This document shows, piece after piece, positions 1-52,782 of a DNA stretch of 52,782 bases. The notes under the pieces are model-generated. The model was not told the origin of the DNA and did not search any database. It was given only the letters and a program-made list of their open reading frames with translations. This DNA is from a virus (lineage: Duplodnaviria; Heunggongvirae; Uroviricota; Caudoviricetes): the IMG/VR virus record IMGVR_UViG_2718218129_000002, one strand, 5' to 3'. The position numbers were made by a program, and so were the translations under genes. Position 1 is the stretch's first letter. Each line of letters opens with the position of its first letter.

Positions 1-234
1 ATGAAATCAAAAGACACCCTAAAGTGGTTCCCTGCGCAGCTTCCTGAAGTAAGAATTATCCTAGGGGATGCTGTAGTGGAAGTAGCAAAACAGGGAAGAC
101 CTATCAATACCAGAACATTGCTTGATTACATTGAAGGAAACATAAAGAAAAAATCATGGCTGGATAACAAAGAATTATTACAAACAGCGATATCAGTTCT
201 TAAAGACAACCAAAATTTAAATGGTAAAATGTAA
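1..234 (+). CDS. hypothetical protein at window edge, possibly outside the prophage
   Basis: 77 aa ORF starting at base 1; lysine-rich, no recognised motif; may be truncated at the 5' end. Confidence 0.25.
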   Translation: MKSKDTLKWFPAQLPEVRIILGDAVVEVAKQGRPINTRTLLDYIEGNIKKKSWLDNKELLQTAISVLKDNQNLNGKM

Positions 235-550
235 TATAATAAACTTACTTTTTTATCATTTTTCCACTTTAACAACATTTTGCTCCACTTTTCCACGACC
301 AAACAACTTGAAATCTGGTTAAAATAACACGCAACACTATTCTTCTTCCTTGAGTCCGCCCGGAACTCGAAAAACAAACCGAGTTAAAGCCATTTTTCAC
401 AAAATCGATTTTGGGTCTCACCAAAATTACGGGGTTGCATACGCATTCGTTTATTTTCGAACGTGTACATACAAATATGCACAAAAATAATCATAATTAT
501 TTTCTGAGATGCATTATGATATGAACACCAATTTCGTATAGAGTCTCACT

Positions 551-1141
551 ATGTCTCGAATTTTTGCTTACTGTCGGATATCAACGCTGGATCAGACCAC
601 CGAAAATCAACGCCGGGAAATCGAAAGTGCAGGTTTTAAAATCAAACCTCAGCAAATAATCGAAGAACACATTAGCGGCTCAGCAGCAACCAGTGAGCGT
701 CCTGGTTTTAACCGGTTGCTTGCTCGCCTGAAATGTGGTGATCAATTGATTGTGACAAAACTGGATCGCCTTGGTTGTAATGCAATGGATATCAGGAAAA
801 CAGTGGAACAACTGACCGAAACAGGTATCAGAGTGCATTGCTTAGCATTGGGTGGCATTGACCTGACCAGTCCAACAGGAAAAATGATGATGCAAGTAAT
901 TTCAGCAGTCGCTGAATTTGAACGAGACCTTTTACTTGAACGCACTCATTCCGGGATAGTAAGAGCCCGCGGCGCAGGGAAACGTTTTGGTCGACCACCT
1001 GTGTTAAATGAAGAACAGAAACAGGTGGTATTCGAACGAATTAAGTCAGGTGTAAGTATAAGTGCCATTGCCCGGGAATTCAAAACCTCGCGGCAAACCA
1101 TTTTAAGAGCCAAAGCAAAACTTCAGACACCTGACATATAA
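551..1141 (+). CDS. pinR: serine recombinase (resolvase/invertase family), PinR-like
   Basis: 196 aa; N-terminal YCRISTLDQ catalytic-serine motif and C-terminal HTH; sits next to tail fibre genes as in Rac. Confidence 0.9.
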
Positions 1142-1238
1142 AAAATAATCTCGGTGTGAGATGCTTTACGTCTTCCAATCCCCCTTCCTTGCCGTAAATG
1201 GAAAGATACATCTAATTATAGAATTTATATGTTTTACC

Positions 1239-1814
1239 CTACGGCAGTGCTGGCCATTCAATATCCTGTGCAGTTGACGTATCAACACGGTTCAGCAATA
1301 CCCGATACTTTTTCCATGCTTCCAGCAACGAGATTTCTTCCTCCGTTGCAATTTCCAGATCTGCAGCATCCTGAAGCGGCGCAATATGCTCACTGGCTAC
1401 CTGCATCAGGTTGTTTTTTGTTTCTTCCGCCTCCCGGATCCGGAACAGTTTTTCTGCTTCCGTATCCTTCACCCAGGCTGTGCCGTTCCACTTCTGAAAC
1501 TCCCCTTCCGGCGATAACCAGGTAACATTTTCCGGTAACGGACCGAGTTCAGAAATAAATAACGCGTTGCCGGAAGCCACGTCATAAACCGTTTTACCCC
1601 GATGATCTTCAACGAGATGCCACGATGACTCATCACTGTTGAAAACAGCCACGAAGCCAGCCGGAATATCTGGCGGTGCAATATCGGTACTGTTTGCTGG
1701 CAGACCTGTATGAGGCGGAATATATGCATCACCTTCACCAATAAATTCATTAGTTCCGGCCAGCAGATTATAAATTTTTATGGTCCGTGGTTGTTCACTC
1801 ATTCTGAATGCCAT
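1239..1814 (-). CDS. tfaR: tail fibre assembly protein Tfa
   Basis: 191 aa ORF immediately downstream of stf with stop/start overlap; lambda Tfa-like position and size. Confidence 0.85.
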
Positions 1815-4800
1815 TATGCAAGCCTCACAATATAGTTAAATGCGATGTTTTTGACGGTGTTTTCCGCGTTACCAGCAGCGTTAACGGTGATGGTGTGTCC
1901 ATGTGAACCAATCGCAACGGAGTGCGTATGAGCACCAATACCGACAGTATGCGCGTGTGCACCTGCGCTTGCAGCAGTGCCGGACAGTGAGTGGGTATGT
2001 GCGCCAGCAGATGATGTTGCATAGTTTTGATTATGCACAACAGACAATCTTGTTGATGCACTACCAGCACCGGAGTTAGCACTAGCCGTGTTCACGTTGG
2101 CTAGTGAGTGTGTGTGTGCTCCAGCCGAGTTTGTAGAGCCGCTCACACTGTGTGTATGTGCCCCGGTGTTATTCGTGGATTTAGTGCCGTAATCAAACGA
2201 CGATGTGGTTTTCGTCCCCAAATCTGTACTGGATGCGCTGGCGCTGTGGGTATGCGATTTAATGCCGTCCTGTTCCTGAGACAATACGGCCCGACCACTG
2301 GCAGGTTTGCCCTTAATCGTCCAGCCACGCATATCAGGGATCACGCCTGACGGATAAGCGGCTGCAAGTTTCGGGTAAGCAGATTTGTCAAAAGCCTGCC
2401 CCTGCATCAGGGCATAACCAGACGGAACGGTATCTGATGGCCACGGGATTGGTGCGCCGACTGGGTAGCTTTCTGGTGGAAGATTTTTCGAGGTATAAAC
2501 TTCTGCCCAGTCTTCCTCAAAACCATAACCGTCTCTTGAAGAACGGTAGAACAGACCACCATTTCTGTAATGCGCCTTCATCTGCAGGGTCCGGCAACTT
2601 CCGACTCCGGTATAGAAGTTAACCAGAATATAGCTGTCGCCAGAGCGGGTGACATTGTAAGCGCCTGATTCGGCATTCCATGGAACGCCACCATCCGCAT
2701 CGGCATATGTATCCGTTGCCCTTCTGGCAAAAGCAGCCACATGCGCGGCGGTTAAAGTAATATCTTTGGAACCATCAAACTCAACACCAGAAACCCGTCT
2801 TGGCGTTTGCAGCTTTGTTGCTGTTAATGCATTACCGTTCAGACTTGCGGACAGTTTGGTTCCAATAACCAGTTCGCCGGTTGCGTTATCAATAGCAAAC
2901 GGTCTTAATGTATTCCAGCCACCATAAACATCACCTTGATTGGTAAGCAGCAGGTAAGTTTTAGCGCCATCATTACGCCATAATGCACCATACTCCCCAC
3001 CTATCATTCGAATCTGATTACCACCACGCGCTACAATTTCGTCTGTGGCAAAAAGTTTTTTGCACGACAAGTTATCGTTAACGATTAACGAATGAGACTC
3101 ATAAAAACCACGCCCACTCTTAAAATCAAGGATAACGTCCGCCGCGATACATTCAGTCGCCGGATTTGTTGCCCCAAACTTATAGGTCGTATCATTAACA
3201 ACGAGATCAGCACCAGGTGCGGATATTGACAGGCCATCTTCAATAAACGCAAAAACAGGGAAAGCAGCGCCATCAACATAGAACACAGAGCGCAAATCAT
3301 CGCCCTTATTACTCATCATTATTGAGTGAATGGCTCGTTCATTGTTTTGATATTGCCAGAACATGCCATAAGCATAACGCCCCCTGTCAGTCCAGCCACC
3401 AGGCATAACAAATCCGTTAAACTCGCAGTTATTCATCGGATCGCCTGCGGTTCGCGTTGCCGTGGTGATAATGACTCTTGATGCCAGTTCGCTTACTGAG
3501 CCAGCAGAACGCATAACAACAACAGGGTAATATTTTCCAGATGTTGCACCTGCAGGAGCGTTAACCCGCACATAACGCATACCACGCTTATCAGCAAAGT
3601 CTGTTTTACTGACCGCGTTAATGTTGTTCAGGAAGCGTCCCTTATCGGGTATATCAGCGCCGTTCTGGTCTTTCTGCAGACGTTTCTCTGCATTGTCATA
3701 GGCTGATTTTACTGCCTTTGGCGTTGCCGCCAGCGTTTCAGACGTACTGTTGGTCGCACTGCTGAGCTGTACTATCCCCTTTTTCGTCGTACTTGCATCC
3801 TCAAGCGCCACGGCGGATGCAATATCCTCTGCCCGTTTTGCCGCTGTCTCGGCGCGCGTTGCCGCGGATTCCGCCGTACTTTTGCTCTGTGCTGCCGCCG
3901 TCGCACTGCCAGCTGCCTCTGTCGCCTTCGTGGATGCTGTCGTGGCGCTGCCCTTCGCTGCGGACGCTTGTCTGGTCGCCTCATCTTTTGAAGCAGACGC
4001 CGATGATGCCGATGACGCCGCCGAACTGGCGGACGATGCGGCAGCCGTTTTTGAGGATTCTGCGCTGGTTTCCGACGCTTTCGCGTTCGTCTCGGATGTC
4101 TTCGCTGCGGAAGCAGACCTCGCTGCTGCGCTGGCCTGTTCAGTGGCTTCGCCAGCCTTCGTTGTGGCTGTTGAAGCAGACGATGCGGCACTTTCTGCCG
4201 ATTTTCCGGCGGCGGTGGCACTGGCTGAGGCCTGCCCGGCACTTGTTGACGCGGCACTGGCAGACGACGCAGCCGCTGTTTTTGAGCCTGCCGCAGCCGA
4301 GGCGCTCTGTCCCGCTGCCGTTTCAGAAGACCTGGCGTTTGTCTCAGACGTCTTTGCCGCCTTCGCGGAATTTCCTGCCGCCGTTGCCGAGGAAGCTGCA
4401 CTACTGGCGCTTGATGATGCGTTCGTTTCTGATGATTTTGCCGCTTCTTTTGAGGCCGCCGCATCCCGGGCCGAGGTCGCAGCTTCTGATGCCTTCGTGG
4501 TCGCGGTGGATGCAGATGTGGCTGCTGATTGTTGTGACGCTGAAGCATTCGTTTCTGACGTTTTCGCCGCACCGGCACTGGTGGCCGCCGCGCTTTTTGA
4601 GGACTCTGCAGCGGCAGCACTTTTTGATGCTTCAGTGGCCTTTGTTGATGCCGTTCCTGCGCTGGAAGACGCTGACTGAGCCGACGACGCGGCCTGTCCG
4701 GCTGACGTGCTGGCTGCGCGTGCTGAGTCCGCAGCATCAGCCGCATGGGTTGCCGCCTCACGGGCTGATGTGCTGGCATCACTGGCTGACTTCTTCGCGG

Positions 4801-5176
4801 CTGCCGTGTTCTGTGCCACCACGGACGCGTTACGCGCCACCTCTTCCACCATCAGTTCAAAACGGCGCAGTGCCTCAGGACGGGCATCATCCTCCGTCAT
4901 GGCACCGAGAAAATCATTCAGCGTACCGGGTCGGGAATCTTCATACACGGTGATGGTCCCGGCATGTGACGGCGGGAATCCTTCCACCAACAGAATAACG
5001 CTGTACTGACCGTACTCAACGTCCATGCTGTAACGCCCGGCTTCATCCGGATTTTCTGAGGCCAGCGTGTTCACCACCACCGTGGTGCTGTTACGTTTTG
5101 CTTTCAGCTGGATTGTGCAGTTCTGTACCGGTTTTCCTGTGCCGTCTTTCAGTACACCTGAAATCTTTACTGCCAT
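1814..5176 (-). CDS. stfR: side tail fibre protein Stf
   Basis: N-terminus [25 protein letters not shown]... matches lambda Stf as recalled; long Ala/Ser/Thr repeat region; C-terminal GAHTHS repeats ending [11 protein letters not shown]; start set at second Met (5176) by analogy to lambda. Confidence 0.9.
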
Positions 5177-5240: not shown

Positions 5241-5840
5241 TCAGAACTTATAACCGACACCCACGATGAAACCGTCAGTGCGCCAGTCGCCACTGCCGGA
5301 GCCTTCATAAGCAATATCAATGGCCACGGATTCGGTCGGGTTAAACTGCACGCCAGCTCCCCACGCCAGAGACGTGTTGCTGTGGCGACCGTCATCACTT
5401 CCGGTCAGCACGTCGTGCGTTTTCCCCTTGTTGTCAGTTACGCGGAGATAATCCCCGGAGAAAGTCGACACACGGCTGTAAGCCATACCCGCCATCGCAT
5501 ACGCGCTGAACCATTCATTCACGCGCACAGACGGCCCCACCATCACGCTGAACCAGCGGTTACGCACGGAATCTTCATGCCAGCGGGTATCGCTGTAACG
5601 GGTAAGCTGGCGATTCTTGTCTCCTGCATAGCTGAATGACGTCACCAGCCCCAGTGTGTCCGTAAACTCATAACGGTATTTCACGTTAATCCCGTTAAGA
5701 TCATCGCTGCCGGGAACGTTCGTCGAGGCATGAAGATACCCCGCGCTCAGCGTGGACTGATGTTCAGATGCCCATGCAGGCGCACCGGATACGGCCAGAC
5801 AAATGGCTGCGGACAAAATGGCGGCATAAAGTTTACGCAT
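5241..5840 (-). CDS. lomR: outer membrane protein Lom (Ail/Lom family)
   Basis: 199 aa; signal peptide; ends in ...GVGYKF beta-barrel terminus; lies between J and stf as lambda lom does. Confidence 0.85.
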
Positions 5841-5909
5841 AATTACCTCTCGCTTTTCTGCAATAAAAAAGGCACCATTTCTGGTGCCCTTATATGGGTT
5901 ATAACAATT

Positions 5910-8900
5910 TCAACGAATACTGATGCCGGAAGCGGCTTTTTTGGTCACAATCACCGTACAGTCGGTGATATTGCCTGCCCCCTGATTGCCTTTCTGGAAA
6001 ATCTTAAACTCCAGAGTGACGCTACCACCACCACTAGGCATATCAATAACTGCACTGTAACTACCGGGAATGGCCCCTTTAGTTTCTCTGGATGCGATTA
6101 ATACGCCGTTTTTGCGAACTTCAAAACCATAACCCGTGTATCGCGTGCCTCCTGGGTTATTTCCGCTCCCCGGATCGTCATACGCTATACCGTTAAAAAT
6201 AATGGGCGGAATAATAATCTGGCGGTCAAAGTTATGATCATCGCTGATGGTGACTGTAACCGTACCGTTTGGTGTTTCCGTGTTACCCCACGTACCGACT
6301 TTTTTCGGGAAGGCTTTTGATACAGCTTTAACGAAATCCCCTCTGACCTGGGTCGCCTCCAGCATGCCCTTAATCGTACAGTTCTGGTTAATCGTGACAT
6401 TGTTGAGCGTTCCTGAGTTCGCATTCACACTACCACTGATATCCGCATTTTTAGCGGTCAGCTTTCCGTCTGATGTCAGGGAAAATACCGGAGGACTGCC
6501 ACCGCTGGTAATGGTGGGGGCTGTCAGGCGCTTCAGGAACACGTCGTTCATGAATATCTGGTTGCCCTGCGCCACAAACATCGGCGTTTCATTCCCGTTT
6601 GCCGGGTCAATAAACGCGATACGGTTAGCGGCAACCAGAAACTGGCTCAGCTTGCCTTCCTCCGTGTCCTCCATGCTGAGGCCAATACCCGCGACATAAT
6701 GTTTGCCGTCTTTGGTCTGCTCAATTTTGACGCCCCACATGGCATTCCATTTATCGTTAGCGTCCTTCCACTCTTTCGAAAACTCATCCAGTCTGCTGGC
6801 GTTATCCTCCGTCAGATCAACTTTTTCCAGCAGCTCTTTACCGAGATGGGATTCGGTTATCTTGCCTTTGAAAAAATCCAGGTAACCTTCCGCATCATCG
6901 CTCGCCCGACCGACGGCCTCCACGAATGCCGATTTGCCAACGGTGTTCACACTGCGGATATAAAAGTAATAATCATGGCCCGGTTTGATATTGATACTGG
7001 CGGCTATCCAGTACAGCCCCGTGCCAAGGTAGCGGGCTGTGGTTTCAACCTGCCTGATATCGGTAATCCGCTTTTCCGAGAACCAGAACTCAAACTGTAC
7101 CGTCGGATCATAAACGGCAAGATGCGGCGTTGCGGTTATCTGAAAATAGCCCGGCGTCAGCTCAATCCGCGACGGTGCTGCCGGTGCGGCAATCCGGAAC
7201 GATACCGACGCCGGATCGCCCTGCTGCCCCCAGGCATTTGCCGCCCGGACTGTCAGCCTGTAGTTCCCCAGCGCCAGTTGCGTGAAGCGGTATGTGGTTT
7301 CCGTCGTCCGGGCCGTGCTGACCAGCCGCTCACTGCCGTCATCCGCTGCCACGGTCAGGCGAAGCATAAAGCTCACGCCCTTCACCACCTTCGGCGTGTC
7401 CCAGCGGGCCAGTACCTGATACTCCCCGCTGTCTGCGGTGACTTCGGCAGTCAGGTGCTGCACCGCTGGCGGCGTGACACCATTCACCGTGCCGCTCTGG
7501 TCGCCGTCAAAGTGCGCCCCGTTATCCACGATGGCTTCTTTTTCCGGTACATGCTGCACGGCAGTGATGGCATACGTGCCGTCATCGTTCTCACGGATAC
7601 TCACACAGCGGAACAGGCGCTGGCGCAACGTCGGCAACTTCAGCCCCCATACGCTGTATCCGGCAACGCCGTCAGGAACACGGCTCACTTTTACCTTCAC
7701 GCCGTCGGTGACGGACTGGACCTCCACGCTGACCGGATTGCCACTTCCGTCAACCAGGCTTATCAGCGTGGTACCGGAGGATGGCAGCGTGATTTCACGG
7801 TCGAGCGTCAGCGTCCGGCTCTGGCTGTTCACCGCCAGCACGCGCCCGCCGGTGCTGATACCGGCATAGTCATCATCGCAGATTTCAATGACATCGCCCG
7901 GTACATGGCGAAGCCCTTCAGCACCCACGCTGAAGTCCACGGTCTGCGTTTCCAGCAGCTCCGTTTTAATCAGCCACAGCCCGGCTCGGTGTGCCTGCCC
8001 CCGGCTGGTACAGCCAAAGGCATCCATCTTCGTGACGTTACGACCATAACGGGCAATGGCCTGCGTGTCCTCCACAAGCTCTGTCGCCGTCTCCCAGCCG
8101 TTATCCGGGTCAATCCAGTTCACCTCAACGGCATTATGGCGGTCCTTCAGGGCGCTGAAGCTGTAGCGGAACGGCGCGCCATCATCCGGCATCACCACAT
8201 TACTGCGGTTATAGGTCCACACCTTATCCGACGGTCGGTCCTGCACGAACGTCAGCGTCTGCCCGTTCCATACCGGCATACAGCGCATCGCCGAGCAGAA
8301 ATCACTGAGCACATCCCACGCCTTGCGCTGTGTGGTCAGGTACGCATTACAGGTGATGCGCGGCTCCGTGCCGCCAAAGCCGTCCGGCACTGACTGGTCG
8401 CAGTACTGGCCGATGACATACAGCGCCCATTTGTCCACATCCGCCGCACCAAGACGTTTCCCCATGCCGTAGCGTGGATGGGTCAGCATATCCCACAGAC
8501 ACCAGGCCATGTTATTGCTGTATGCTGGCTTAAACGTTCCGTCCCAGATACCGCTGTATTGCCGCGTCTGCGGGTTATAGTTCGACGGCACCTGCAGAAT
8601 ACGCCCGCGCAGATGATAATTACGGCTCACCTGCTGGCTGCCGAACTGCTCCGAATCCACCTGTACGCCGACCAGTGCCGTGTTCGGGTAGCACTGTTTC
8701 ACATCGATGATTTCGGTGTATGACGACCAGAGCGTTTTGTTCTGCAGCTGGTCTGTGGTGCTGTCCGGCGTCATCCTGCGCATCCGGATATTAAACGGGC
8801 GCGGCGGCAGGTTATCCACCACCACCGAGGCCAGATACTGCGAGGTGGTTTTGCCCTTAATGGTGATGTCTTTTTCCGTCACCCAGCCACCGTTACGTTG

Positions 8901-9323
8901 TATCTGAACCAGCAGGCGGACTTCCGACGGATTCCTGTCCCCCTTAGAGGTGGTTTCCACCAGTGCCTGCACGCCGAAAGTAAAACGCAGACGGTCAATG
9001 TTTGCCGACGTGATGGTCCGGGTGATCGGCGTGTCATATTTCACTTCTGTACCGAGCACCGTCTCGGAGCCGGAGGATTCAAATCCCTCCGGCGGTGTCT
9101 GCTCCTGCTCACCGGCCCGGAACACCACCGTGACGCCGGATATATTGGTATTCCCCTCACTGTCCAGCACCGGCGTACTGTTCAGCAGCACGCTTTTTAA
9201 TCCATCCACCGGACCTTCAACCGGCCCTTCGCTGATGGCATCGATCACACTCAGCAGCTGCGTGGACTTCAGGTTGTCCTTCGCTTCGCGCGGGGTATGC
9301 CCCTTACTGCTGCCTTTACCCAT
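5910..9323 (-). CDS. J: tail tip / host specificity protein J
   Basis: 1137 aa; N-terminus [34 protein letters not shown]... matches lambda J as recalled; C-terminal about 150 aa diverge. Confidence 0.9.
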
Positions 9324-9383
9324 TCGTCATGCTCCATAAACGATAAAACCGCCCGGAGGCGGTTTCACATAAAACGTTTTTCA

Positions 9384-10031
9384 TCAGCGACCAATCACCA
9401 CAACCTGACCACCATCCCCTTCGTCTGCCGTGCTGATCTCCTGAGAGACCACCCGCGACCCCACGCGCATTTCACCGTACAGAACGGGCAGAACATTGCC
9501 CTGGGCAACCATGTTATCCAGTGACGAGAAATACGTGTTCTGTTTGCCGTTATCTGTACTGGCTGCCGTGGGCGTCCTGGCTTTCGGTGCCAACATCTGC
9601 GCCACACCGCCCAGGATCATACTGGCCCCTGCCGCATACATACCCGATACAGCCGTGGCCCCCAGCCAGCCCACAGGGTTCCACCATGCAACCGCAATCA
9701 GCGCCGCCCCCAGCACTGCCTGAAAAATACCGCCACTTTTAGCACCCGCCGGACGCGGTACGATGTGGATCACGGCACCATTTTCCAGCGGCTCATTAAG
9801 ACGGGCAGACAATTCAGTTTCACCTGCATCACGCCCGGCAATGCGTACCTGGTACCAGCCGTCGCTCAGTTTCTGACGAAATGCCGGGATCTGCATGGCC
9901 AGCGCCCGGATGGCTTCGGACCCCGTTTTCACTCGAAGGTCGATGCGGCGGCCAAATCGTTGTAAATCCCCGTAAAGGCAGATGCGTGCCATGCCCGGTG
10001 ACGCCAGAGGGAGTGTGTGCGTCGCTGCCAT
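9384..10031 (-). CDS. I: tail assembly protein I
   Basis: 215 aa; MAATHTLPLASPGMARICLYGDLQRFGRR... matches lambda I as recalled. Confidence 0.85.
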   Translation of the reverse strand: MAATHTLPLASPGMARICLYGDLQRFGRRIDLRVKTGSEAIRALAMQIPAFRQKLSDGWYQVRIAGRDAGETELSARLNEPLENGAVIHIVPRPAGAKSGGIFQAVLGAALIAVAWWNPVGWLGATAVSGMYAAGASMILGGVAQMLAPKARTPTAASTDNGKQNTYFSSLDNMVAQGNVLPVLYGEMRVGSRVVSQEISTADEGDGGQVVVIGR

Positions 10032-10672: not shown

Positions 10673-10677
10673 GGGAT

Positions 10678-16886: not shown

Positions 16887-16912
16887 AGGAGCCTCCTATG
16901 TCATTAATTGCG

Positions 16913-40850: not shown

Positions 40851-41059
40851 ATTATTCCTCATTTTTACTTTGTACACTGCGGCATTCTAACGTAACTAAA
40901 TTATCAAAATAACCTATTTATTTCTGACCTAATCTTCAATAATCAATGTTGTGTGAACTTAGTTAGGCCCGCCCCTGGCACAAAACAGACAACCACGCTA
41001 GCCGTATCCTGTGCCATGAAACTGTCAATTCACATATGAATTAATGGTCTTTAATCTCG

Positions 41060-41482: not shown

Positions 41483-41498
41483 AAGCCCTCCCCAGGAA

Positions 41499-42246: not shown

Positions 42247-42993
42247 TTACTTCTCAATTCCTGGCTGACCAACATTCGGGCGCCAGCTCTCCCAGTTAAA
42301 ATTCACCCATCGCCCGCCGTTCATGGTCATCCGATCCATAATCCTCTCGCCGAGCAATGTTTTCATGGCCTCATAGTTCAGGTTTGTCAGCATCCCCACG
42401 CTGCGGATCGACGCTGTCCGGCGATCAACAATCTGGTGCAGTACCACCTGCTCGTTTTTTGTCTCGCGCTGAATGCCAATTTCATCAAGAACCAGCAGAT
42501 CCACTTCGCACAGTTCCCGCAAAAATTTTTCGCCTGATTGCCCGTCGTCATAGCTGGCGTGTAGAGCACTCATAACATCAGCCACGGTAACCACAATCAC
42601 TGTCTGACCGTTTTTCAGCAGGCGATTCCCGATAGCCGCCGCCAGATGGTTTTTTCCGGTACCAGGTTTTCCGCTAAACGCAAAATTTGTACACCCGACC
42701 ATCAGTTCATCGGCGATGAATTTCGCCTGGCTCAACGCGTATCGCTGGCCGTCGTTCTGCACCTGGTAATTCGAAAACGAGCATTTGCGGTGCAACGGCT
42801 GGATGCCGGAGCGATTCAGAATTTTTTCCACCCGCAACTGACGATTCTGGCGATTGATCTCCTCGCAACGTTTCTGGCCTTCTGCAAGTTGCCACTCGCG
42901 CCACTCCGCCACCGTCCTGAATGGCGCGGTTACATGTGGCGGGGCCAGTCTGCGGATACGTTCCAGAACGCCGCCTGTCGCAATATTTTTCAT
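42247..42993 (-). CDS. ydaV: DnaC-like helicase loader (IstB-like AAA+ ATPase)
   Basis: 248 aa; Walker A GKPGTGKNHLAAAIG; Walker B LLVLDEIG. Confidence 0.85.
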   Translation of the reverse strand: MKNIATGGVLERIRRLAPPHVTAPFRTVAEWREWQLAEGQKRCEEINRQNRQLRVEKILNRSGIQPLHRKCSFSNYQVQNDGQRYALSQAKFIADELMVGCTNFAFSGKPGTGKNHLAAAIGNRLLKNGQTVIVVTVADVMSALHASYDDGQSGEKFLRELCEVDLLVLDEIGIQRETKNEQVVLHQIVDRRTASIRSVGMLTNLNYEAMKTLLGERIMDRMTMNGGRWVNFNWESWRPNVGQPGIEK

Positions 42994-42999: not shown

Positions 43000-43788
43000 T
43001 TACCCCCTGAAGCCTGGCGGGATCGCACTGTCCGGAAACGAGACAGTGTTAACCTGTCGGAGCAACGTCTCAGGCCGAACACTTTTCGGCGCGAACAAGC
43101 CCTGGTATTCATTGGCGATGCTGTGTCGAATCACCTGCTCAGGGGTAAAACCCTGCTGGCGGAATTTTTCCAGTTCCCGTATCGCCCCGTTAGCGCCCTG
43201 CTCCGTTCGAATCGGTTTTCGCAATGCCTGCCTGAACTGGACCCACTCATTCCAGAGTGTTTCTGGCAACCAGTCGGGCAGAGCAATGGCCTCCGGCTCG
43301 AATTGTTTAGACGCTCGTTTTTGCCGAGGGGGATTTAGGGGGAGATCAGTATTTATATCTTCCTCTTCCTCTTCCTCTGGTAACGCTTTTTGATCCGTTT
43401 GTGTAACGCTGGCAGCGTTACCTTTTCGCTTCAGTTCGCGTATTTTTGTAACTCTCTCGTTTGTAACCGCCCGTTTTTTCGAGCTTTTTCCGTTATGACG
43501 CTCAAAGTTTGGTAGTGAAAGCACTCCATCACTTTCGACCAGCCATCCAACCTGAATTAACGCATCAGCAAAACCAGCCATAAAAGTGATACGGTCTATT
43601 GCACTTTTTGTAACGCCTCGAGCGTTACACTCTGCGTTACCGTCTATCATTTGTTGATCCGCCCATGCCCAGAAGCGAATGACTTTCCCTAATGCGGCAT
43701 CTGGATCAATATTCAGAATCTCAGCAAGCCTGAATATTTCCGGCTTATCCGGCGTAATAACTTCGAGCTTTATCCAGTTTGAAGCCAT
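43000..43788 (-). CDS. ydaU: replication initiation protein (O / DnaT-like)
   Basis: 262 aa directly upstream of the DnaC-like gene; acidic EEEEEED linker. Confidence 0.6.
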   Translation of the reverse strand: MASNWIKLEVITPDKPEIFRLAEILNIDPDAALGKVIRFWAWADQQMIDGNAECNARGVTKSAIDRITFMAGFADALIQVGWLVESDGVLSLPNFERHNGKSSKKRAVTNERVTKIRELKRKGNAASVTQTDQKALPEEEEEEDINTDLPLNPPRQKRASKQFEPEAIALPDWLPETLWNEWVQFRQALRKPIRTEQGANGAIRELEKFRQQGFTPEQVIRHSIANEYQGLFAPKSVRPETLLRQVNTVSFPDSAIPPGFRG

Positions 43789-43865
43789 TTGTTTTCACCT
43801 TGTAACGCTCGCAGCGTTACATTTAACTGATACCGAACAAAACAGTTCGGTACGATTAATTTCAA

Positions 43866-44288
43866 TCAATGCACTACGACAGAATCGCTAGGAGAACCGC
43901 CGCCGCTGAAATGTGCTTTACGGTAAACGGCCTGGACTGCATCATCATGCGCATCAATTGCCGTACTCAGTGCATCCTGTGCCGCCAGTAATGCACGGCG
44001 TTCCAGGGTATCGAAGATGCAGAGTCGGTGACGCAGCTCGCGAGGAAGAATTGCCAGAACCGCAGGGATCAGTTTCTGAATTTTTTCCCTTTGCGCATTC
44101 GTTTCACCTTTCAACCAACGATGATAGATATTCTGCTGATTGTTCCAGTCCTTGCCTGGTACCAGGGGCAATTCGCCGCCCCCCTGGCGCAGATATTCTT
44201 CAGTAATTGCGTTAGCGACCCACGCCTGCCCTTTTTCGGCTGCCAGGGCTAACAACACTGATTCGATGTGCTCATGCTTGATTTTCAT
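43866..44288 (-). CDS. ydaT: YdaT-like protein (cII-position early gene)
   Basis: 140 aa, the size and position of Rac YdaT. Confidence 0.6.
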   Translation of the reverse strand: MKIKHEHIESVLLALAAEKGQAWVANAITEEYLRQGGGELPLVPGKDWNNQQNIYHRWLKGETNAQREKIQKLIPAVLAILPRELRHRLCIFDTLERRALLAAQDALSTAIDAHDDAVQAVYRKAHFSGGGSPSDSVVVH

Positions 44289-45154: not shown

Positions 45155-45325
45155 TATATACCTACCAACCCACCCCGCCCCACAGAACGCCGGGCAATAC
45201 TTCGAGTTACCAGGCAGTGGTCAGGGGTTAAGTAGCCAGCCCGAGGCGTATGAACATGACGGCGGGATTCAAATTTTGCAGTGCAGCAGTTAGTTCCGCC
45301 ACCCGGCGTTAAGGGGATAGATAAG

Positions 45326-45460
45326 ATGGTGCATTACGAAGTAGTTCAGTATTTGATGGATTGTTGCGGTATCACTTACAACCAGGCTGTGCAGGCTTTA
45401 CGCAGCAACGACTGGGATCTCTGGCAGGCAGAAGTCGCTATACGTAGCAACAAGATGTGA
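45326..45460 (+). CDS. ydaG: small protein, YdaG-like
   Basis: 44 aa hand-translated MVHYEVVQYLMDCCG...; strong AAGGGGA Shine-Dalgarno. Confidence 0.45.
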   Translation: MVHYEVVQYLMDCCGITYNQAVQALRSNDWDLWQAEVAIRSNKM

Positions 45461-45470: not shown

Positions 45471-45626
45471 ATGCAAAAAATCGACCTCGGCAACAACGAA
45501 TCCCTGGTGTGCGGCGTGTTCCCCAACCAGGATGGAACGTTCACTGCCATGACGTATACCAAAAGCAAAACATTTAAAACCGAAACTGGTGCGCGCCGAT
45601 GGTTGGAGAAGCACACAGTAAGCTAA
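45471..45626 (+). CDS. ydaF: small protein, YdaF-like
   Basis: 51 aa hand-translated MQKIDLGNNESLVCGVFPNQDG... Confidence 0.45.
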   Translation: MQKIDLGNNESLVCGVFPNQDGTFTAMTYTKSKTFKTETGARRWLEKHTVS

Positions 45627-46234
45627 CGATTAAAACGTCTACTCCTGCTGTTCCAGAATAACTTCATAAAATGGGAGTATTTTTCGGTGACGAGATAATA
45701 AGAACAGTTTGCGCTATCACTCTGATGTTGAATGATGCCCTTCCGTTCTAATTTTTTCATAACCGGGTTACGGCAAGGAGAAGTGATAATAAGATTTCCT
45801 GTTTTAAGGAAATCTTTAAATACAGCGATTTCTTTCTCAGATAAACGAAGCAATACTCGTTGCTCTGGTAGTAATGAATAATGCTTTTGAATATGTGCTC
45901 GCAATCTTGAGAAGGAAATGGCGACCACGAAAGAAAAGGCAAAAACGATAATCTGAAAGAGCCAAGGTATTTCAGTATAAGCATTGAATGCGACAGTAAA
46001 CTCTTTCGGTATCAGCCAGAGAGTGAGACCAAAAATGATAATCGTATACATAAGTCTTTCGAGTGGCTCGTTAGCAAAAAGTTTCAACAATGGAGTAAAT
46101 ACATCCAACGTATCAATAACTCTCAACTGTAAGGGTATTGAAATGTTAACACAAGCTCTCGCTGTAGGGGTATAGCCGAGACCACCGAAGCCCGGAGGTG
46201 GTGAAATAAAACCGGGCACAACACGAAGGCGCAT
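45623..46234 (-). CDS. sieB: superinfection exclusion protein SieB-like membrane protein
   Basis: Hydrophobic segments; lies between the repressor region and kilR as sieB does in Rac; true start may be the internal Met MYTIIIFGL. Confidence 0.55.
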   Translation of the reverse strand: MRLRVVPGFISPPPGFGGLGYTPTARACVNISIPLQLRVIDTLDVFTPLLKLFANEPLERLMYTIIIFGLTLWLIPKEFTVAFNAYTEIPWLFQIIVFAFSFVVAISFSRLRAHIQKHYSLLPEQRVLLRLSEKEIAVFKDFLKTGNLIITSPCRNPVMKKLERKGIIQHQSDSANCSYYLVTEKYSHFMKLFWNSRSRRFNR

Positions 46235-46552: not shown

Positions 46553-46774
46553 ATGATTGCACATCACTTCGGAACTGATGAAATACCACGTCAGTGTGTG
46601 ACTCCTGGCGATTATGTTCTTCATGAAGGCCGGACATATATTGCCTCGGCAAACAATATTAAAAAGCGAAAACTATATATTCGTAACCTGACCACAAAAA
46701 CATGCATTACTGACCGCATGATTAAAGTCTTCCTCGGTCGTGATGGTTTACCTGTAAAGGCGGAGTCATGGTGA
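46553..46774 (+). CDS. kilR: Kil protein (FtsZ inhibitor)
   Basis: 73 aa from [15 protein letters not shown]...; GGAG Shine-Dalgarno six nt upstream. Confidence 0.65.
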
Positions 46775-46944
46775 TGACTAAGAAAATAAAATGTGCTTAC
46801 CACCTTTGCAAAAAAGACGTTGAAGAAAGCAAAGCTATTGAAAGAATGCTTCACTTCATGCACGGGATTTTATCAAAAGACGAACCGAGAAAATATTGCA
46901 GTGAAGCTTGTGCCGAAAAAGACCAGATGGCACATGAACTTTAA
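46774..46944 (+). CDS. ydaE: small Cys/His-rich protein YdaE-like
   Basis: 56 aa hand-translated [20 protein letters not shown]...; start overlaps the kilR stop. Confidence 0.5.
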   Translation: MTKKIKCAYHLCKKDVEESKAIERMLHFMHGILSKDEPRKYCSEACAEKDQMAHEL

Positions 46945-47018
46945 TTAATTGACTATTCGAAACTGAATTTATGCCAGAAATGGCAGGTATTCGCTCAACT
47001 TTAATTAAGGAGAAAAAC

Positions 47019-47294
47019 ATGATTACCAATTATGAAGCCACTGTTGTAACTACCGATGACATTGTTCACGAGGTGAATCTGGAAGGAAAGCGCATTGGCT
47101 ACGTAATTAAAACAGAAAATAAAGAAACCCCATTCACTGTGGTTGATATCGATGGTCCATCAGGCAACGTAAAAACACTTGATGAAGGTGTCAAAAAAAT
47201 GTGCCTGGTGCATATCGGAAAGAATCTGCCCGCAGAAAAAAAAGCCGAATTTCTGGCAACTCTAATTGCAATGAAATTAAAAGGTGAAATCTGA
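47019..47294 (+). CDS. racC: RacC-like protein
   Basis: 91 aa from MITNYEATVVTTDDIVHEV...; immediately upstream of recE. Confidence 0.6.
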   Translation: MITNYEATVVTTDDIVHEVNLEGKRIGYVIKTENKETPFTVVDIDGPSGNVKTLDEGVKKMCLVHIGKNLPAEKKAEFLATLIAMKLKGEI

Positions 47295-47395
47295 AAGAAA
47301 TAGCCTGCGTATGGCGCAGGCTATGAACAGTGTGTATCCGGCAAGATCATTCACTGAACAAAACGAATTTTAATCTGAGTTGAGGTTAAAAAACA

Positions 47396-49996
47396 ATGAG
47401 CACAAAACCACTCTTCCTGTTACGGAAAGCGAAAAAATCATCCGGTGAACCTGACGTCGTCCTGTGGGCAAGCAACGATTTTGAATCGACCTGTGCCACT
47501 CTGGACTACCTGATCGTTAAGTCAGGTAAAAAACTGAGCAGCTATTTTAAAGCTGTTGCCACGAATTTTCCTGTCGTTAATGACCTGCCCGCTGAAGGTG
47601 AGATCGATTTTACCTGGAGTGAACGCTATCAACTCAGCAAAGACTCCATGACATGGGAACTAAAACCGGGAGCAGCACCAGACAACGCTCACTATCAAGG
47701 CAATACCAACGTCAACGGCGAAGACATGACTGAGATTGAGGAGAATATGCTACTCCCAATTTCTGGCCAGGAACTGCCCATTCGTTGGCTTGCTCAACAC
47801 GGCAGCGAAAAACCGGTAACGCACGTTTCACGCGACGGACTCCAGGCATTACACATTGCTCGGGCTGAAGAACTACCGGCTGTTACTGCCCTGGCTGTTT
47901 CCCACAAAACCAGCCTGCTCGACCCGCTGGAAATTCGCGAACTCCACAAACTGGTTCGTGACACTGACAAAGTTTTCCCTAATCCTGGTAATTCAAACCT
48001 GGGACTGATAACTGCTTTTTTCGAAGCATACCTGAACGCTGACTACACCGATCGAGGACTGCTGACAAAAGAGTGGGTGAAGGGTAATCGTGTTTCACAC
48101 ATCACTCGCACGGCTTCCGGTGCTAATGCTGGCGGCGGAAACCTCACCGATCGCGGCGAAGGTTTCGTACACGATCTGACGTCACTGGCGCGCGACGTAG
48201 CCACTGGCGTACTGGCCCGTTCAATGGATCTGGACATCTATAACCTTCATCCGGCACACGCTAAACGCATTGAGGAAATTATCGCTGAAAATAAACCGCC
48301 CTTTTCTGTTTTCCGCGACAAATTCATCACCATGCCTGGCGGGCTGGATTATTCCCGCGCCATCGTGGTTGCGTCCGTAAAAGAAGCACCAATTGGGATC
48401 GAGGTCATCCCCGCGCACGTCACTGAATATCTGAACAAAGTACTGACTGAAACCGATCATGCCAACCCTGATCCGGAAATCGTGGATATTGCCTGCGGTC
48501 GCTCCTCTGCCCCGATGCCGCAGCGAGTAACAGAAGAAGGAAAACAGGATGATGAAGAAAAACCGCAACCATCTGGAACAACGGCAGTTGAACAGGGAGA
48601 GGCTGAAACAATGGAACCGGACGCAACTGAACATCATCAGGACACGCAGCCGCTGGATGCTCAGTCACAGGTAAATTCTGTTGATGCGAAATATCAGGAA
48701 CTGCGGGCAAAACTCCATGAAGCCCGGAAAAACATTCCATCAAAAAATCCTGTCGATGCCGATAAATTGCTTGCTGCATCACGTGGTGAATTTGTTGACG
48801 GAATTAGCGACCCGAACGATCCGAAATGGGTAAAGGGGATCCAGACTCGCGATTGTGTGTACCAGAACCAGCCAGAAACGGAAAAAACCAGCCCAGATAT
48901 GAATCAACCTGAGCCAGTAGTGCAACAGGAACCGGAAATAGCCTGCAATGCCTGCGGCCAGACTGGCGGGGATAACTGCCCTGACTGTGGTGCGGTGATG
49001 GGCGACGCAACATACCAGGAAACATTCGCTGAAGAGAGTCAGGTTGAAGCTAAGGAAAATGATCCGGAGGAAATGGAAGGCGCTGAACATCCGCACAATG
49101 AGAATGCTGGCAGCGATCCGCATCGCGATTGCAGTGATGAAACTGGCGAAGTCGCAGATCCCGTAATCGTAGAAGACATAGAGCCAGGTATTTATTACGG
49201 AATTTCGAATGAGAATTACCACGCGGGTCCCGGTATCAGTAAGTCTCAGCTCGATGACATTGCTGATACTCCGGCACTATATTTGTGGCGTAAAAATGCC
49301 CCCGTGGACACCACAAAGACAAAAACGCTCGATTTAGGAACTGCTTTCCACTGCCGGGTACTTGAACCGGAAGAATTCAGTAACCGCTTTATCGTAGCAC
49401 CTGAATTTAACCGCCGTACAAACGCCGGAAAAGAAGAAGAGAAAGCGTTTCTGATGGAATGCGCAAGCACAGGAAAAACGGTTATCACTGCGGAAGAAGG
49501 CCGGAAAATTGAACTCATGTATCAAAGCGTTATGGCTTTGCCGCTGGGGCAATGGCTTGTTGAAAGCGCCGGACACGCTGAATCATCAATTTACTGGGAA
49601 GATCCTGAAACAGGAATTTTGTGTCGGTGCCGTCCGGACAAAATTATCCCTGAATTTCACTGGATCATGGACGTGAAAACTACGGCGGATATTCAACGAT
49701 TCAAAACCGCTTATTACGACTACCGCTATCACGTTCAGGATGCATTCTACAGTGACGGTTATGTAGCACAGTTTGGAGTGCAGCCAACTTTCGTTTTTCT
49801 GGTTGCCAGCACAACTATTGAATGCGGACGTTATCCGGTTGAAATTTTCATGATGGGCGAAGAAGCAAAACTGGCAGGTCAACAGGAATATCACCGCAAT
49901 CTGCGAACCCTGTCTGACTGCCTGAATACCGATGAATGGCCAGCTATTAAGACATTATCACTGCCCCGCTGGGCTAAGGAATATGCAAATGACTAA
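47396..49996 (+). CDS. recE: exodeoxyribonuclease VIII RecE
   Basis: 866 aa, the size of RecE; acidic central linker; stop overlaps the recT start. Confidence 0.9.
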
Positions 49997-50798
49997 GCAA
50001 CCACCAATCGCAAAAGCCGATCTGCAAAAAACTCAGGGAAACCGTGCACCAGCAGCAGTTAAAAATAGCGACGTGATTAGTTTTATTAACCAGCCATCAA
50101 TGAAAGAGCAACTGGCAGCAGCTCTTCCACGCCATATGACGGCTGAACGTATGATCCGTATCGCCACCACAGAAATTCGTAAAGTTCCGGCGTTAGGAAA
50201 CTGTGACACTATGAGTTTTGTCAGTGCGATCGTACAGTGTTCACAGCTCGGACTTGAGCCAGGTAGCGCCCTCGGTCATGCATATTTACTGCCTTTTGGT
50301 AATAAAAACGAAAAGAGCGGTAAAAAGAACGTTCAGCTAATCATTGGCTATCGCGGCATGATTGATCTGGCTCGCCGTTCTGGTCAAATCGCCAGCCTGT
50401 CAGCCCGTGTTGTCCGTGAAGGTGACGAGTTTAGCTTCGAATTTGGCCTTGATGAAAAGTTAATACACCGCCCGGGAGAAAACGAAGATGCCCCGGTTAC
50501 CCACGTCTATGCTGTCGCAAGACTGAAAGACGGAGGTACTCAGTTTGAAGTTATGACGCGCAAACAGATTGAGCTGGTGCGCAGCCTGAGTAAAGCTGGT
50601 AATAACGGGCCGTGGGTAACTCACTGGGAAGAAATGGCAAAGAAAACGGCTATTCGTCGCCTGTTCAAATATCTGCCCGTATCAATTGAGATCCAGCGTG
50701 CAGTATCAATGGATGAAAAGGAACCACTGACAATCGATCCTGCAGATTCCTCTGTATTAACCGGGGAATACAGTGTAATCGATAATTCAGAGGAATAA
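49989..50798 (+). CDS. recT: single-strand annealing protein RecT
   Basis: 269 aa from [13 protein letters not shown]...; coupled to recE by ATGA overlap. Confidence 0.9.
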
Positions 50799-50854
50799 TT
50801 CAGCCTGGCGGTGTAATGCACCGCCAACTTGAAATATTTTTTATGAGAAAAATT

Positions 50855-51049
50855 ATGAGATATGACAATGTTAAACCATGTCCATTTTGTGGTTGTCCAT
50901 CAGTAACGGTGAAAGCCATTTCAGGATATTACCGAGCGAAGTGTAACGGATGCGAATCCCGAACCGGTTATGGTGGAAGTGAAAAAGAAGCACTCGAAAG
51001 ATGGAATAAACGAACCACTGGAAATAATAATGGAGGTGTTCATGTGTAA
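50855..51049 (+). CDS. ralR: restriction alleviation protein RalR/Lar
   Basis: 64 aa from MRYDNVKPCPFCGCPSVTVKAISGYYRAKCNGCESRTG...; zinc-ribbon-like Cys pairs. Confidence 0.75.
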   Translation: MRYDNVKPCPFCGCPSVTVKAISGYYRAKCNGCESRTGYGGSEKEALERWNKRTTGNNNGGVHV

Positions 51050-51251
51050 AATTACCGCCACTATTGAAAAGGAAGGTGGCACTCCTACTAACTGGACAAG
51101 ATATTCAAAATCTAAACTAACGAAATCAGAATGCGAAAAAATGCTCTCAGGTAAAAAAGAAGCAGGCGTTTCCAGAGAGCAGAAAGTAAAACTGATAAAT
51201 TTTAATTGCGAGAAACTTCAGTCCTCGAGAATTGCATTGTATTCAAATTAA
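51042..51251 (+). CDS. ydaC: YdaC-like small protein
   Basis: 69 aa from MCKITATIEKEGG...; GGAGGTG Shine-Dalgarno. Confidence 0.55.
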   Translation: MCKITATIEKEGGTPTNWTRYSKSKLTKSECEKMLSGKKEAGVSREQKVKLINFNCEKLQSSRIALYSN

Positions 51252-51329
51252 AACTTCATAGCTGATTATTAATAATCAACATCGGGCGTCAATTTCAGTC
51301 TAACATTGGCGCCTGCCAGAGGTGATGCG

Positions 51330-51545
51330 ATGGCACAAGTAATCTTTAATGAAGAGTGGATGGTTGAATACGGCCTGATGCTTCGCACTGGTCTGGGGGC
51401 CAGACAAATTGAAGCATACCGCCAGAACTGTTGGGTGGAGGGCTTCCACTTCAAACGAGTATCTCCTTTAGGTAAGCCAGACAGCAAACGAGGGATTATC
51501 TGGTACAACTATCCAAAGATAAATCAGTTTATCAAAGACTCATGA
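51330..51545 (+). CDS. xisR: excisionase-like protein
   Basis: 71 aa from [15 protein letters not shown]...; directly upstream of and nearly abutting the integrase. Confidence 0.6.
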
Positions 51546-51546
51546 T

Positions 51547-52782
51547 ATGTCTAAATTACCAACAGGTGTCGAGATTAGAGGTAGATACATTCGCATCTGG
51601 TTCATGTTTCGAGGAAAACGATGTCGGGAAACATTAAAAGGCTGGGAGATTACAAACAGTAATATTAAAAAGGCCGGAAATTTAAGATCGCTGATAGTTC
51701 ATGAAATAAACTCCGGTGAATTTGAGTATTTAAGACGTTTTCCCCTGTCCAGCACTGGGGCAAAAATGGTGACAACGAGAGTCATAAAAACGTTCGGAGA
51801 GCTTTGTGATATCTGGACAAAAATTAAAGAGACAGAGTTAACAACAAACACAATGAAGAAAACGAAATCACAATTAAAAACACTCAGAATAATAATTTGT
51901 GAAAGTACCCCGATATCACATATTCGTTATAGCGATATCTTAAACTACCGGAATGAACTGCTGCATGGAGAAACGCTTTACCTGGATAATCCAAGATCCA
52001 ACAAAAAAGGAAGAACCGTGCGCACAGTTGATAACTATATCGCCCTGCTCTGTTCGCTGTTGCGTTTTGCGTATCAGTCGGGATTTATATCAACTAAACC
52101 ATTTGAAGGAGTAAAAAAATTACAGCGAAACAGAATAAAGCCTGATCCTTTATCTAAAACAGAATTCAATGCATTAATGGAAAGTGAAAAAGGACAGAGC
52201 CAGAACTTGTGGAAATTTGCCGTTTACTCAGGACTTCGTCACGGGGAACTGGCAGCTCTGGCGTGGGAGGATGTGGATCTCGAAAAGGGAATAGTGAATG
52301 TCAGAAGAAACCTGACGATACTTGATATGTTCGGTCCCCCAAAAACAAATGCCGGGATCCGAACAGTAACACTACTGCAGCCTGCTCTTGAAGCACTGAA
52401 GGAGCAATACAAACTGACCGGGCATCATCGCAAAAGCGAAATCACCTTTTATCATCGGGAGTACGGCAGAACCGAAAAGCAAAAACTGCATTTTGTTTTC
52501 ATGCCCAGGGTGTGTAACGGAAAACAAAAACCTTATTACTCGGTAAGCAGTTTGGGGGCAAGGTGGAATGCAGCAGTAAAACGTGCTGGTATTCGCCGCC
52601 GTAATCCGTACCATACGCGGCATACTTTTGCCTGCTGGCTGTTGACGGCAGGAGCGAACCCGGCATTTATAGCCAGCCAAATGGGGCATGAAACTGCGCA
52701 GATGGTGTATGAAATTTACGGTATGTGGATTGATGACATGAACGACGAACAGATAGCCATGTTGAATGCGCGGTTATCGTAG
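51547..52782 (+). CDS. intR: tyrosine integrase IntR
   Basis: 411 aa; C-terminal catalytic region with RHTFACWLL and HETAQMVYEIYG motifs; ends at the window edge. Confidence 0.9.
   Translation: MSKLPTGVEIRGRYIRIWFMFRGKRCRETLKGWEITNSNIKKAGNLRSLIVHEINSGEFEYLRRFPLSSTGAKMVTTRVIKTFGELCDIWTKIKETELTTNTMKKTKSQLKTLRIIICESTPISHIRYSDILNYRNELLHGETLYLDNPRSNKKGRTVRTVDNYIALLCSLLRFAYQSGFISTKPFEGVKKLQRNRIKPDPLSKTEFNALMESEKGQSQNLWKFAVYSGLRHGELAALAWEDVDLEKGIVNVRRNLTILDMFGPPKTNAGIRTVTLLQPALEALKEQYKLTGHHRKSEITFYHREYGRTEKQKLHFVFMPRVCNGKQKPYYSVSSLGARWNAAVKRAGIRRRNPYHTRHTFACWLLTAGANPAFIASQMGHETAQMVYEIYGMWIDDMNDEQIAMLNARLS

Follow-up and report, generated by a model that had tools for sequence, protein, structure and literature searches.

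The Rac-type element at ttcA and its K-12 counterpart

The virus record IMGVR_UViG_2718218129_000002 is a stretch of 52,782 bp, called the window here at its full length, which begins with the ATG of ynaE/ydfK and has the intR stop codon as its final triplet. Sixty-one genes were projected on it from the RefSeq annotation of identical or near-identical genomes, and each is open in the window and aligns over its whole length with the corresponding gene of independent strains. From the integrase side, they comprise an integration module, a recET-kil early arm, immunity and replication genes, a cargo island, nin-like and lysis genes with accompanying morons, the potassium transporter gene trkG, a pair of genes for a ParB fusion and a glycosyltransferase, and then the packaging, head and tail genes down to the side fibres (Table 1); no tRNA gene was found when the window was scanned for them. 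Very probably, the window represents a temperate lambdoid siphovirus of the Rac lineage at ttcA, full-length and with its gene set complete, and the Rac prophage carried by Escherichia coli K-12 is the remnant of a close relative of it.

Where does this element sit on the chromosome? In a megablast survey of 5,426 complete E. coli genomes, strain WGI31CT was 100% identical to positions 27783-52782 of the window and strain PEC1009 to positions 1-25000, and blastn lengthens the latter match to 1-33000 at 99.98%. Both strains carry the element between uspF/ynaM and ttcA, which is the Rac site of K-12 MG1655. The att site is a 43-bp imperfect direct repeat (40/43), the same as in K-12, whose left copy was read in PEC1009 at 735-777 bp left of the window start, and whose right copy was read in WGI31CT at 59-101 bp beyond the window end, overlapping the start of ttcA. 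From these distances the whole prophage comes to ~53.6 kb, and neither att copy is inside the window. A first-pass annotation, made from the letters alone, had placed the attachment site just beyond the integrase-side edge and had called for a search of the flanks, and the repeat is indeed there, on the left in PEC1009 and on the right in WGI31CT. Thus, the IntR/XisR module, the insertion at the 5′ end of ttcA and the flanking repeat are all those of the Rac lineage, and IntR and XisR would integrate and excise the element at this repeat. In the WGI31CT scaffold (NZ_CM135810.1, L003 23114-24260), stfR is cut short at 543 bp, and what follows is a 5S rRNA gene with tRNA-Asp and dkgB. Two pieces have probably been put together here by the assembly, and the arrangement would not be biological; because of this join, the record is without the left 5 kb of the window.

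When MG1655 Rac (NC_000913.3, 1411899-1434958) was compared with the window by blastn, the K-12 segments all turned out to be colinear with it at 99.5-100% identity, those of the immunity and replication region excepted, and the shared proteins of the segments so matched differ by 0-5 residues each. The early-left arm (rcbA, ralR/RalA, recT, recE, racC, ydaE, kilR and sieB) is 99.75% identical in DNA over 7.6 kb, and the late markers Rz/Rz1, trkG, ynaK, ydaY, tmpR, lomR, stfR, tfaR, pinR and ynaE are present in the K-12 order. The alignment thus places the window in the Rac lineage and not in another prophage family. The Rac gene order from intR to pinR, which the first-pass annotation had listed, holds for these colinear blocks but not for racR/ydaS, no homologue of which was matched in the window by blastn or tblastn, and YdaU is homologous in its C-terminal half only (78% amino acid identity). 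The endpoints of what is absent from K-12 could be mapped as well. Three blocks are missing there, and they account for the head, lysis, nin and cargo segments of which, as had been expected, K-12 retains only fragments. The first contains the cargo together with the nin-like and Q-like genes, the two genes for TolA-like proteins, those for holin and lysozyme, and the initial seven codons of Rz; the second contains most of the ParB-like gene, the glycosyltransferase (TAGT) gene, the terminase genes, the head, connector and tail-tube genes, and the chaperone gene at its 5′ end; and the third contains the tape measure from about residue 312 on, then M, L, K, I and J, and one third of lom, at its 5′ end. 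Each junction shows only two nucleotides of microhomology, which points to illegitimate recombination. The K-12-type junction of the first deletion occurs in 337 genomes, and the insertion sequence (IS) element IS5 in K-12 lomR has no counterpart at that place in the window. The K-12 remnant would therefore be explained if a close relative of the window had suffered three illegitimate deletions and one IS5 insertion.

With this map, several orphan genes of K-12 can be read as pieces of complete ones. K-12 YnaK consists of residues 1-85 of the 263-amino-acid ParB-fusion protein, to which QR is added before the stop. YdaY consists of residues 38-153 of the 153-residue tail-assembly chaperone, and YnaA/tmpR of tape-measure residues 1 to ~312 running out of frame into lom, while rzpR is Rz without its first seven codons, residues 8-154 being kept. 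No earlier mapping of ynaK, ydaY and tmpR onto full-length genes was found in the literature library searched, and the present comparison contributes an exact map of the deletions and a new reading of ynaK, ydaY, ynaA/tmpR and rzpR. They give a base-accurate account of the origin of the textbook K-12 remnant, which helps annotation and leaves the understanding of its biology unchanged. In current records, RefSeq (PGAP) calls the intact 263-codon ParB-X gene (26788-27579) a 258-bp ynaK pseudogene "missing C-terminus" (12040-12297 of L001 and 35322-35579 of L005), and starts ydaY at an internal TTG to give 119 amino acids, against the 153-amino-acid chaperone open reading frame (15414-15875). 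The truncated K-12 remnants in effect serve as reference for the full-length genes.

Is the window, then, the direct progenitor of K-12 Rac, so that its cargo is what K-12 has lost? Three clean junctions with two-nucleotide microhomology, and flanks with 99.5-100% identity at all but one of the six junction sides, would fit such a descent. However, besides the want of a racR/ydaS homologue, ydaT, ydaU and ydaV are only 90-92% identical in DNA and ydaW 80%, and the K-12 block from racR to ydaW is 97% identical to another Rac variant, vB_EcoS-683R6, whose cargo slot is filled by an S8 peptidase, an ATPase and other genes; moreover, the cargo block of the window (34900-41060) is carried by just 8 of the 5,426 genomes. 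Direct descent is contradicted by the immunity genes, the 683R6-like block and the rare cargo, and deserves hardly any credence. Since the immunity and replication block of K-12 is closer to the 683R6 variant, K-12 is not a simple deletion derivative of the window element, and the earlier proposal that this copy shows the ancestral cargo has to be given up, other Rac copies holding other genes in that place. Alternatively, the window might be some other lambdoid prophage which shares with Rac only the integrase and the early-left arm, as Rac-SA53 and Sp10/CP-933R do, and its late genes would then be uninformative on K-12. Rac-like prophages are mosaic, Rac-SA53 having an unrelated structural module and dicA/dicC-type immunity, and the immunity and initiator region of the window is unlike K-12 too. 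Nevertheless, the K-12 late remnants from Rz to ynaE match at 99.5-100% with their order kept, and each truncated K-12 product corresponds exactly to a segment of a full-length window protein, by which this explanation is refuted for the late region and becomes extremely improbable as a whole. The close-relative reading would instead make the window a mosaic sibling of the K-12 Rac progenitor, set apart by its immunity cassette, by the N-terminus of its initiator, by divergence in ydaW and by a rare cargo of defence-like genes, low in G+C, in a variable slot.

Table 1. Features of the window, with the blocks shared with or absent from K-12 Rac at the end (aa, amino acids; HTH, helix-turn-helix)
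Feature	Position	Strand	Basis or remark
ynaE/ydfK	1-234	+	0-5 aa differences from K-12
pinR	551-1141	+	identical to K-12 protein
tfaR	1239-1814	-	identical to K-12 protein
stfR	1814-5176	-	5 aa differences from K-12
Lom	5241-5840	-	RefSeq annotation; open
J	5910-9323	-	RefSeq annotation; open
I	9384-9932	-	RefSeq annotation; open
K	9929-10672	-	RefSeq annotation; open
L	10678-11376	-	RefSeq annotation; open
M	11376-11714	-	RefSeq annotation; open
Tape measure, 1077 aa	11707-14940	-	RefSeq annotation; open
Chaperone G	15414-15875	-	PHROGs; 153 aa
Tail tube	15924-16886	-	PHROGs
Tail terminator	16913-17305	-	PHROGs
Neck1	17302-17682	-	PHROGs
Hc1	17683-18066	-	PHROGs
Ad1	18066-18461	-	PHROGs
58-aa protein	18465-18641	-	62% aa identity to HK639
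P22-type major capsid protein	18684-19823	-	Pfam P22_CoatProtein; 75% aa identity to HK639
Scaffold	19922-20686	-	PHROGs/Pfam; 65% aa identity to HK639
SPP1 gp7-like head morphogenesis protein	20791-21903	-	PHROGs/Pfam; 50% aa identity to HK639
Portal	21887-23293	-	PHROGs/Pfam; 69% aa identity to HK639
TerL	23296-24597	-	PHROGs/Pfam; ATPase and nuclease domains both present
TerS	24578-25672	-	PHROGs/Pfam
69-aa protein	25676-25885	-	
TAGT-family GT-A glycosyltransferase	25863-26795	-	Pfam TAGT (PF20691), E=7.6e-35, 121 bits vs cut-off 27.5
ParB_N-X fusion, 263 aa	26788-27579	-	Pfam ParB_N; K-12 ynaK = first 85 codons
trkG, potassium transporter moron	27717-29174	-	identical to K-12 TrkG over 485 aa
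Rz	29312-29776	-	RefSeq annotation; open
Rz1, embedded in Rz	29371-29556	-	RefSeq annotation; open
Lysozyme	29773-30270	-	RefSeq annotation; open
Holin	30270-30485	-	RefSeq annotation; open
TolA C-terminal-domain protein	30736-31110	-	profile search; apparent lipoprotein signal peptide
TolA C-terminal-domain protein	31282-31710	-	profile search; apparent lipoprotein signal peptide
STnc100 small-RNA-family match	31821-32007	-	Rfam, 86.6 bits
Terminator-like hairpin	32327-32308	-	
Promoter-like site	32384-32355	-	downstream of Q-like gene
DUF1133 Q-like antiterminator	32755-33297	-	PHROGs, Pfam
YbcO nuclease	33294-33584	-	PHROGs, Pfam
DUF1367/NinB-like	33584-34183	-	PHROGs, Pfam
hok/sok	34647-34972	-	Rfam sok; Pfam/PADLOC
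DUF4145	35299-36003	-	Pfam/PADLOC
MBL-fold hydrolase	36718-37944	+	Pfam/PADLOC
AbiJ_NTD4/PDC-S32 candidate defence gene	38185-39078	-	Pfam/PADLOC
Anti-phage dGTPase	39489-40850	-	Pfam/PADLOC
DUF977 gene	41060-41482	-	Pfam
ydaW, DUF1627	41499-42224	-	55% aa identity to K-12; Pfam
ydaV, DnaC-like loader	42247-42993	-	96% aa identity to K-12; Pfam
YdaU-like replication initiator	43000-43788	-	C-terminal half alone homologous to K-12, 78% aa identity; Pfam
ydaT (CII-like)	43866-44288	-	94% aa identity to K-12; Pfam
HTH Cro-like protein, 84 aa	44285-44539	-	profile search
HTH_3 repressor, 139 aa	44619-45038	+	Pfam HTH_3; in racR/ydaS position
ydaG-like	45281-45460	+	98-100% aa identity to K-12 (range for ydaG-like, ydaF, sieB)
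ydaF	45471-45626	+	same range
sieB	45623-46051	-	same range
Early-left operon kilR, ydaE, racC, recE (47396-49996), recT (49989-50798), ralR, rcbA	46553-51251	+	0-5 aa differences per protein from K-12
RalA antitoxin small RNA	51048-51226	-	Rfam RalA, 225 bits
xisR	51330-51545	+	excisionase; identical to K-12; RefSeq annotation of identical WGI31CT sequence
intR	51547-52782	+	tyrosine integrase; 2/411 residues differ from K-12 (A48S, Q67L); RefSeq annotation of WGI31CT
K-12 intR to ydaG	52782-45163		99.75% DNA identity
K-12 ydaT	44294-43868		92.5% DNA identity
K-12 ydaU 3′ part, ydaV, ydaW start	43361-42112		90.4% DNA identity
K-12 ydaW	42001-41811		79.6% DNA identity
K-12 Rz/Rz1, trkG, ynaK	29756-27326		99.7% DNA identity
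K-12 ydaY, ynaA/tmpR	15765-14006		99.9% DNA identity
K-12 lomR part 1	5638-5425		100% DNA identity
K-12 lomR part 2, stfR, tfaR, pinR, ynaE	5430-1		99.5% DNA identity
Absent from K-12, deletion 1	29757-41810		12,054 bp; junction microhomology TA
Absent from K-12, deletion 2	15766-27325		11,560 bp; junction microhomology TT
Absent from K-12, deletion 3	5639-14005		8,367 bp; junction microhomology TG

Virion genes, regulation and viability

PHROGs and Pfam fill every structural role of a lambda-like siphovirus, and the packaging, head, connector, tail and lysis set is complete and undisrupted in sequence. Among the 61 genes, no frameshift, stop or IS element was found in the essential head, tail, lysis or regulatory genes; inactivating mutations there would have told against the earlier suggestion of an intact Rac-type prophage, and together with the K-12 colinearity their absence supports it. 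The head is of the HK639 type with a P22 fold, since the portal, gp7-like, scaffold, capsid and small proteins stand in order and no maturation protease accompanies them. In the chaperone gene, a slippery A_AAA_AAG lies at 15426-15420, the reading frame stops three codons later, and the -1 frame is open for 114 codons to 15106; thus, the G/GT frameshift is preserved. When codons were compared with those of two other copies, synonymous and non-synonymous differences stood at 109:53 and 68:49, an excess of synonymous changes that points to purifying selection. For the virion, a P22-fold head of the HK639 type is predicted, together with a tail of the lambda type that bears Stf and Tfa as side fibres. 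Within tfaR, there is an Rfam IS009 match (221 bits) at 1273-1471 on the minus strand, in a region common to K-12 Rac (99.5% DNA identity).

The place of racR/ydaS is taken by an unrelated HTH pair, which makes the immunity cassette different from that of K-12 Rac, and the immunity specificity presumably differs as well. The repressor is 99.3% identical to CI of phage Tritos, in which the same cI, cro and ydaT-like layout is seen. Immunity would be governed by this small HTH repressor together with the Cro-like gene divergent from it, YdaT being the CII analogue, and the genome would be replicated by the YdaU-like initiator with the YdaV loader. A palindrome of ~21 bp, TGTAACGC..GCGTTACA, occurs in three copies ~200 bp apart (43402-43425, 43609-43632 and 43801-43824), within and just upstream of the initiator gene, and they are candidates for origin sites or for binding sites of a regulator, specific to this type of immunity and replication. 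On the late side, the promoter-like site, the hairpin and the STnc100 match probably make up a late-operon leader, and the DUF1133 Q-like antiterminator would switch on one long late operon covering the morons, lysis genes, trkG, the ParB-X/TAGT pair, TerS/TerL, head and tail. The genes for repressor and Cro, initiator and loader, and the Q-type antiterminator are all present and open, their activity being predicted.

Even though every gene is open, could the element have ceased to produce infectious particles? A prophage of this kind would be gene-complete but defective, through missense or regulatory lesions, through oversize after the gain of cargo or through want of an induction pathway, and it would be a recently immobilised prophage kept for its cargo. 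Several points weigh on this side and against a functional phage. That the window genes work together to give inducible, infectious virions is an inference, and missense defects may exist among them. The 139-amino-acid repressor has HTH_3 only and no S24 self-cleavage domain by Pfam, and the LexA boxes matched in the window at two mismatches (4, with 1.1 expected) include none in a regulatory position, so that there is no evidence for SOS control. The element of ~53.6 kb is 4 kb larger than HK639 (49.6 kb), whose capsid is homologous, and if packaging is of the headful type, which the terminase type suggests, it might exceed the capacity of the capsid; it stands at the large end of its family, and several Rac copies match the early half over a stretch ~4 kb shorter. 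When phage collections were searched for a virion-derived genome with this head, all matches of at least 99% were PHASTER predictions or a prophage excerpt. The excerpt, ON032529.1, labelled as the complete "Salmonella phage SPF_0923", holds an E. coli nifJ fragment, ompN, uspF and sitABCD beside Rac tail-fibre genes and ends inside the lysis region. KingRac, a 46.8-kb Rac-related prophage at ttcA which forms particles upon induction with mitomycin C (Frazao et al. 2019, PMC6731689), is itself only weakly inducible (PMC6731689). Besides, the att positions given above come from the flanks of two near-identical strains and not from the genome of the window itself. Against a defective element speak the 61 genes with 0 frameshifts, stops or IS elements, protein lengths conserved across strains and with respect to HK639, the excess of synonymous changes, and the structural half found at a coverage of at least 80% in 405 of the 5,426 genomes (~7%), since an intact structural module in so many genomes is hard to maintain without function. 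On balance, a defective prophage is possible but rather unlikely, and a gene-complete temperate phage, which may be inducible as the first-pass annotation suggested, remains the preferred reading. vB_EcoS-683R6 and SPF_0923 had been taken up as proof of viability, and both were dropped after the source preprint and the annotation showed them to be a prediction and an excerpt, respectively. In the source strain of SPF_0923, sitABCD stands in place of pinR/ynaE as right-end cargo.

The ParB-X/TAGT pair, the cargo island and the morons

The genes for the ParB_N-X fusion and the TAGT-family glycosyltransferase overlap by eight nucleotides and lie between trkG and the terminase genes, directly upstream of the latter; a DDD motif is visible in the TAGT protein sequence. 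Homologous pairs with 40-47% identity are found in Lactobacillus phage phi jlb1, Nocardia phage NTR1 and the haloarchaeal virus HHTV-2, and in both phi jlb1 and NTR1 the pair again lies upstream of the terminase and directly adjoins it. Vibrio phage pv27 has a free-standing X domain next to the TAGT gene, and in each of the three metagenomic contexts that were examined, TAGT directly follows a stand-alone X gene, beside replication genes. No Pfam domain was found in the stand-alone X proteins (~132 amino acids), and a sequence search of the PDB gave no match for the TAGT protein. What kind of modification might such a pair carry out? For DNA modification of the TAGT type, the glycosyltransferase is there, and a ParB_N-X partner stands in place of a linked TET/JBP or hydroxymethyl-pyrimidine pathway: RefSeq product names and general profile scans of ~40 window proteins revealed no TET/JBP dioxygenase or hydroxymethylase. 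The literature was searched for work that links TAGT or, in phages, GREB1 to ParB, and nothing relevant came up. It is tentatively proposed, as a rather doubtful possibility, that ParB_N with a conserved helical X domain, for which no Pfam model exists, and a translationally coupled TAGT gene form an uncharacterised virus module, which may glycosylate either phage DNA without the TET/hydroxymethyl-cytosine pathway, or protein. If the acceptor is a protein, it is possibly an invariant tyrosine in the linker of the X protein. If this is true, the modification of genome or virion in Rac-type phages would be of a new kind, and it might serve against host restriction.

The cargo island (34647-40850), between the replication and nin-like genes, has a G+C content of 0.388 against 0.467 for the whole window. 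The C-terminus of its MBL-fold protein resembles the MBL effectors of Lamassu, DRT and Avs systems, and a PDB sequence search with this protein gave nothing beyond weak ComEC-like matches. In the same slot, other Rac copies have other defence-like genes (IteA/IteS, DUF262, a nuclease with a methyltransferase), and thus the slot behaves as a variable defence hotspot. A moron slot between the Q-like gene and holin is occupied by the two TolA-like genes, whose lipoboxes were read by eye as VAGC and IIGC; at this position vB_EcoS-683R6 has two tRNA genes. The TolA-like pair might hinder colicins or phages that enter in a Tol-dependent manner. Only the rare cargo island and the ParB-X/TAGT pair might lead somewhere new.

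Comparison with known elements

Among the closest known elements are three predicted prophages, vB_EcoS-683R6, -666R9 and -673R7 (ON470595, ON470614 and ON470616), whose packaging, head and tail module is 98-100% identical to the window; these records, as mentioned, are PHASTER predictions and not sequenced virions. They and the Rac copies in the 405 RefSeq genomes, such as PEC1009 and WGI31CT, have the same trkG, lysis genes and ttcA context. 666R9 and 673R7 share the immunity repressor of the window, whereas 683R6 differs in having K-12-type racR immunity in addition to the differences in the moron and cargo slots described above. Phage HK639 (NC_016158), an isolated, viable lambdoid phage deposited as a complete genome, has a homologous head module with the same order and lengths (capsid 75%, portal 69%, scaffold 65%, small protein 62%, gp7-like 50%). 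Little or no relationship is seen in its terminase, its connectors (one weak match apart), its tail, its integrase and its early genes. In the case of Tritos (OV696610), the likeness of the CI repressor and its surroundings does not extend far, as only 12% of the 23.6-kb early half of the window is covered, at ~90% identity.

K-12 Rac itself has XisR, RecT, RalR, RacC, YdaE, TrkG, TfaR and PinR identical to those of the window, with 2 differences in IntR, 5 in RecE and 5 in StfR, and it differs by the loss of 12.05, 11.56 and 8.37 kb, by IS5 in lomR, by racR/ydaS immunity, by another YdaU N-terminus and by its YdaW, which has only 55% amino acid identity. A review covers the Rac-like prophages that other strains carry at ttcA (PMC4632033), and toxin-carrying "full-sized Rac-like prophages" were described by Jobling (PMC5917428). 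One of them, Rac-SA53 (KU052037, Jobling 2016), shares with the window the integration at ttcA via IntR, the genes from int to recET with the kil arm, and, in the same place, the Q, ybcO and irsA (DUF1367) genes and hok, while its structural module is unrelated, its immunity is of the dicA/dicC type and its cargo consists of toxin genes. KingRac, too, is integrated at ttcA through IntR and has the recET-kil early arm; it is experimentally active, and it replaces the defective K-12 Rac in the mouse gut (PMC6731689). Since full-size and active Rac-like phages have been published and the structural module occurs in ~7% of genomes, the finding of an intact Rac-type prophage is correct but already known: the window is a known, common kind of element.

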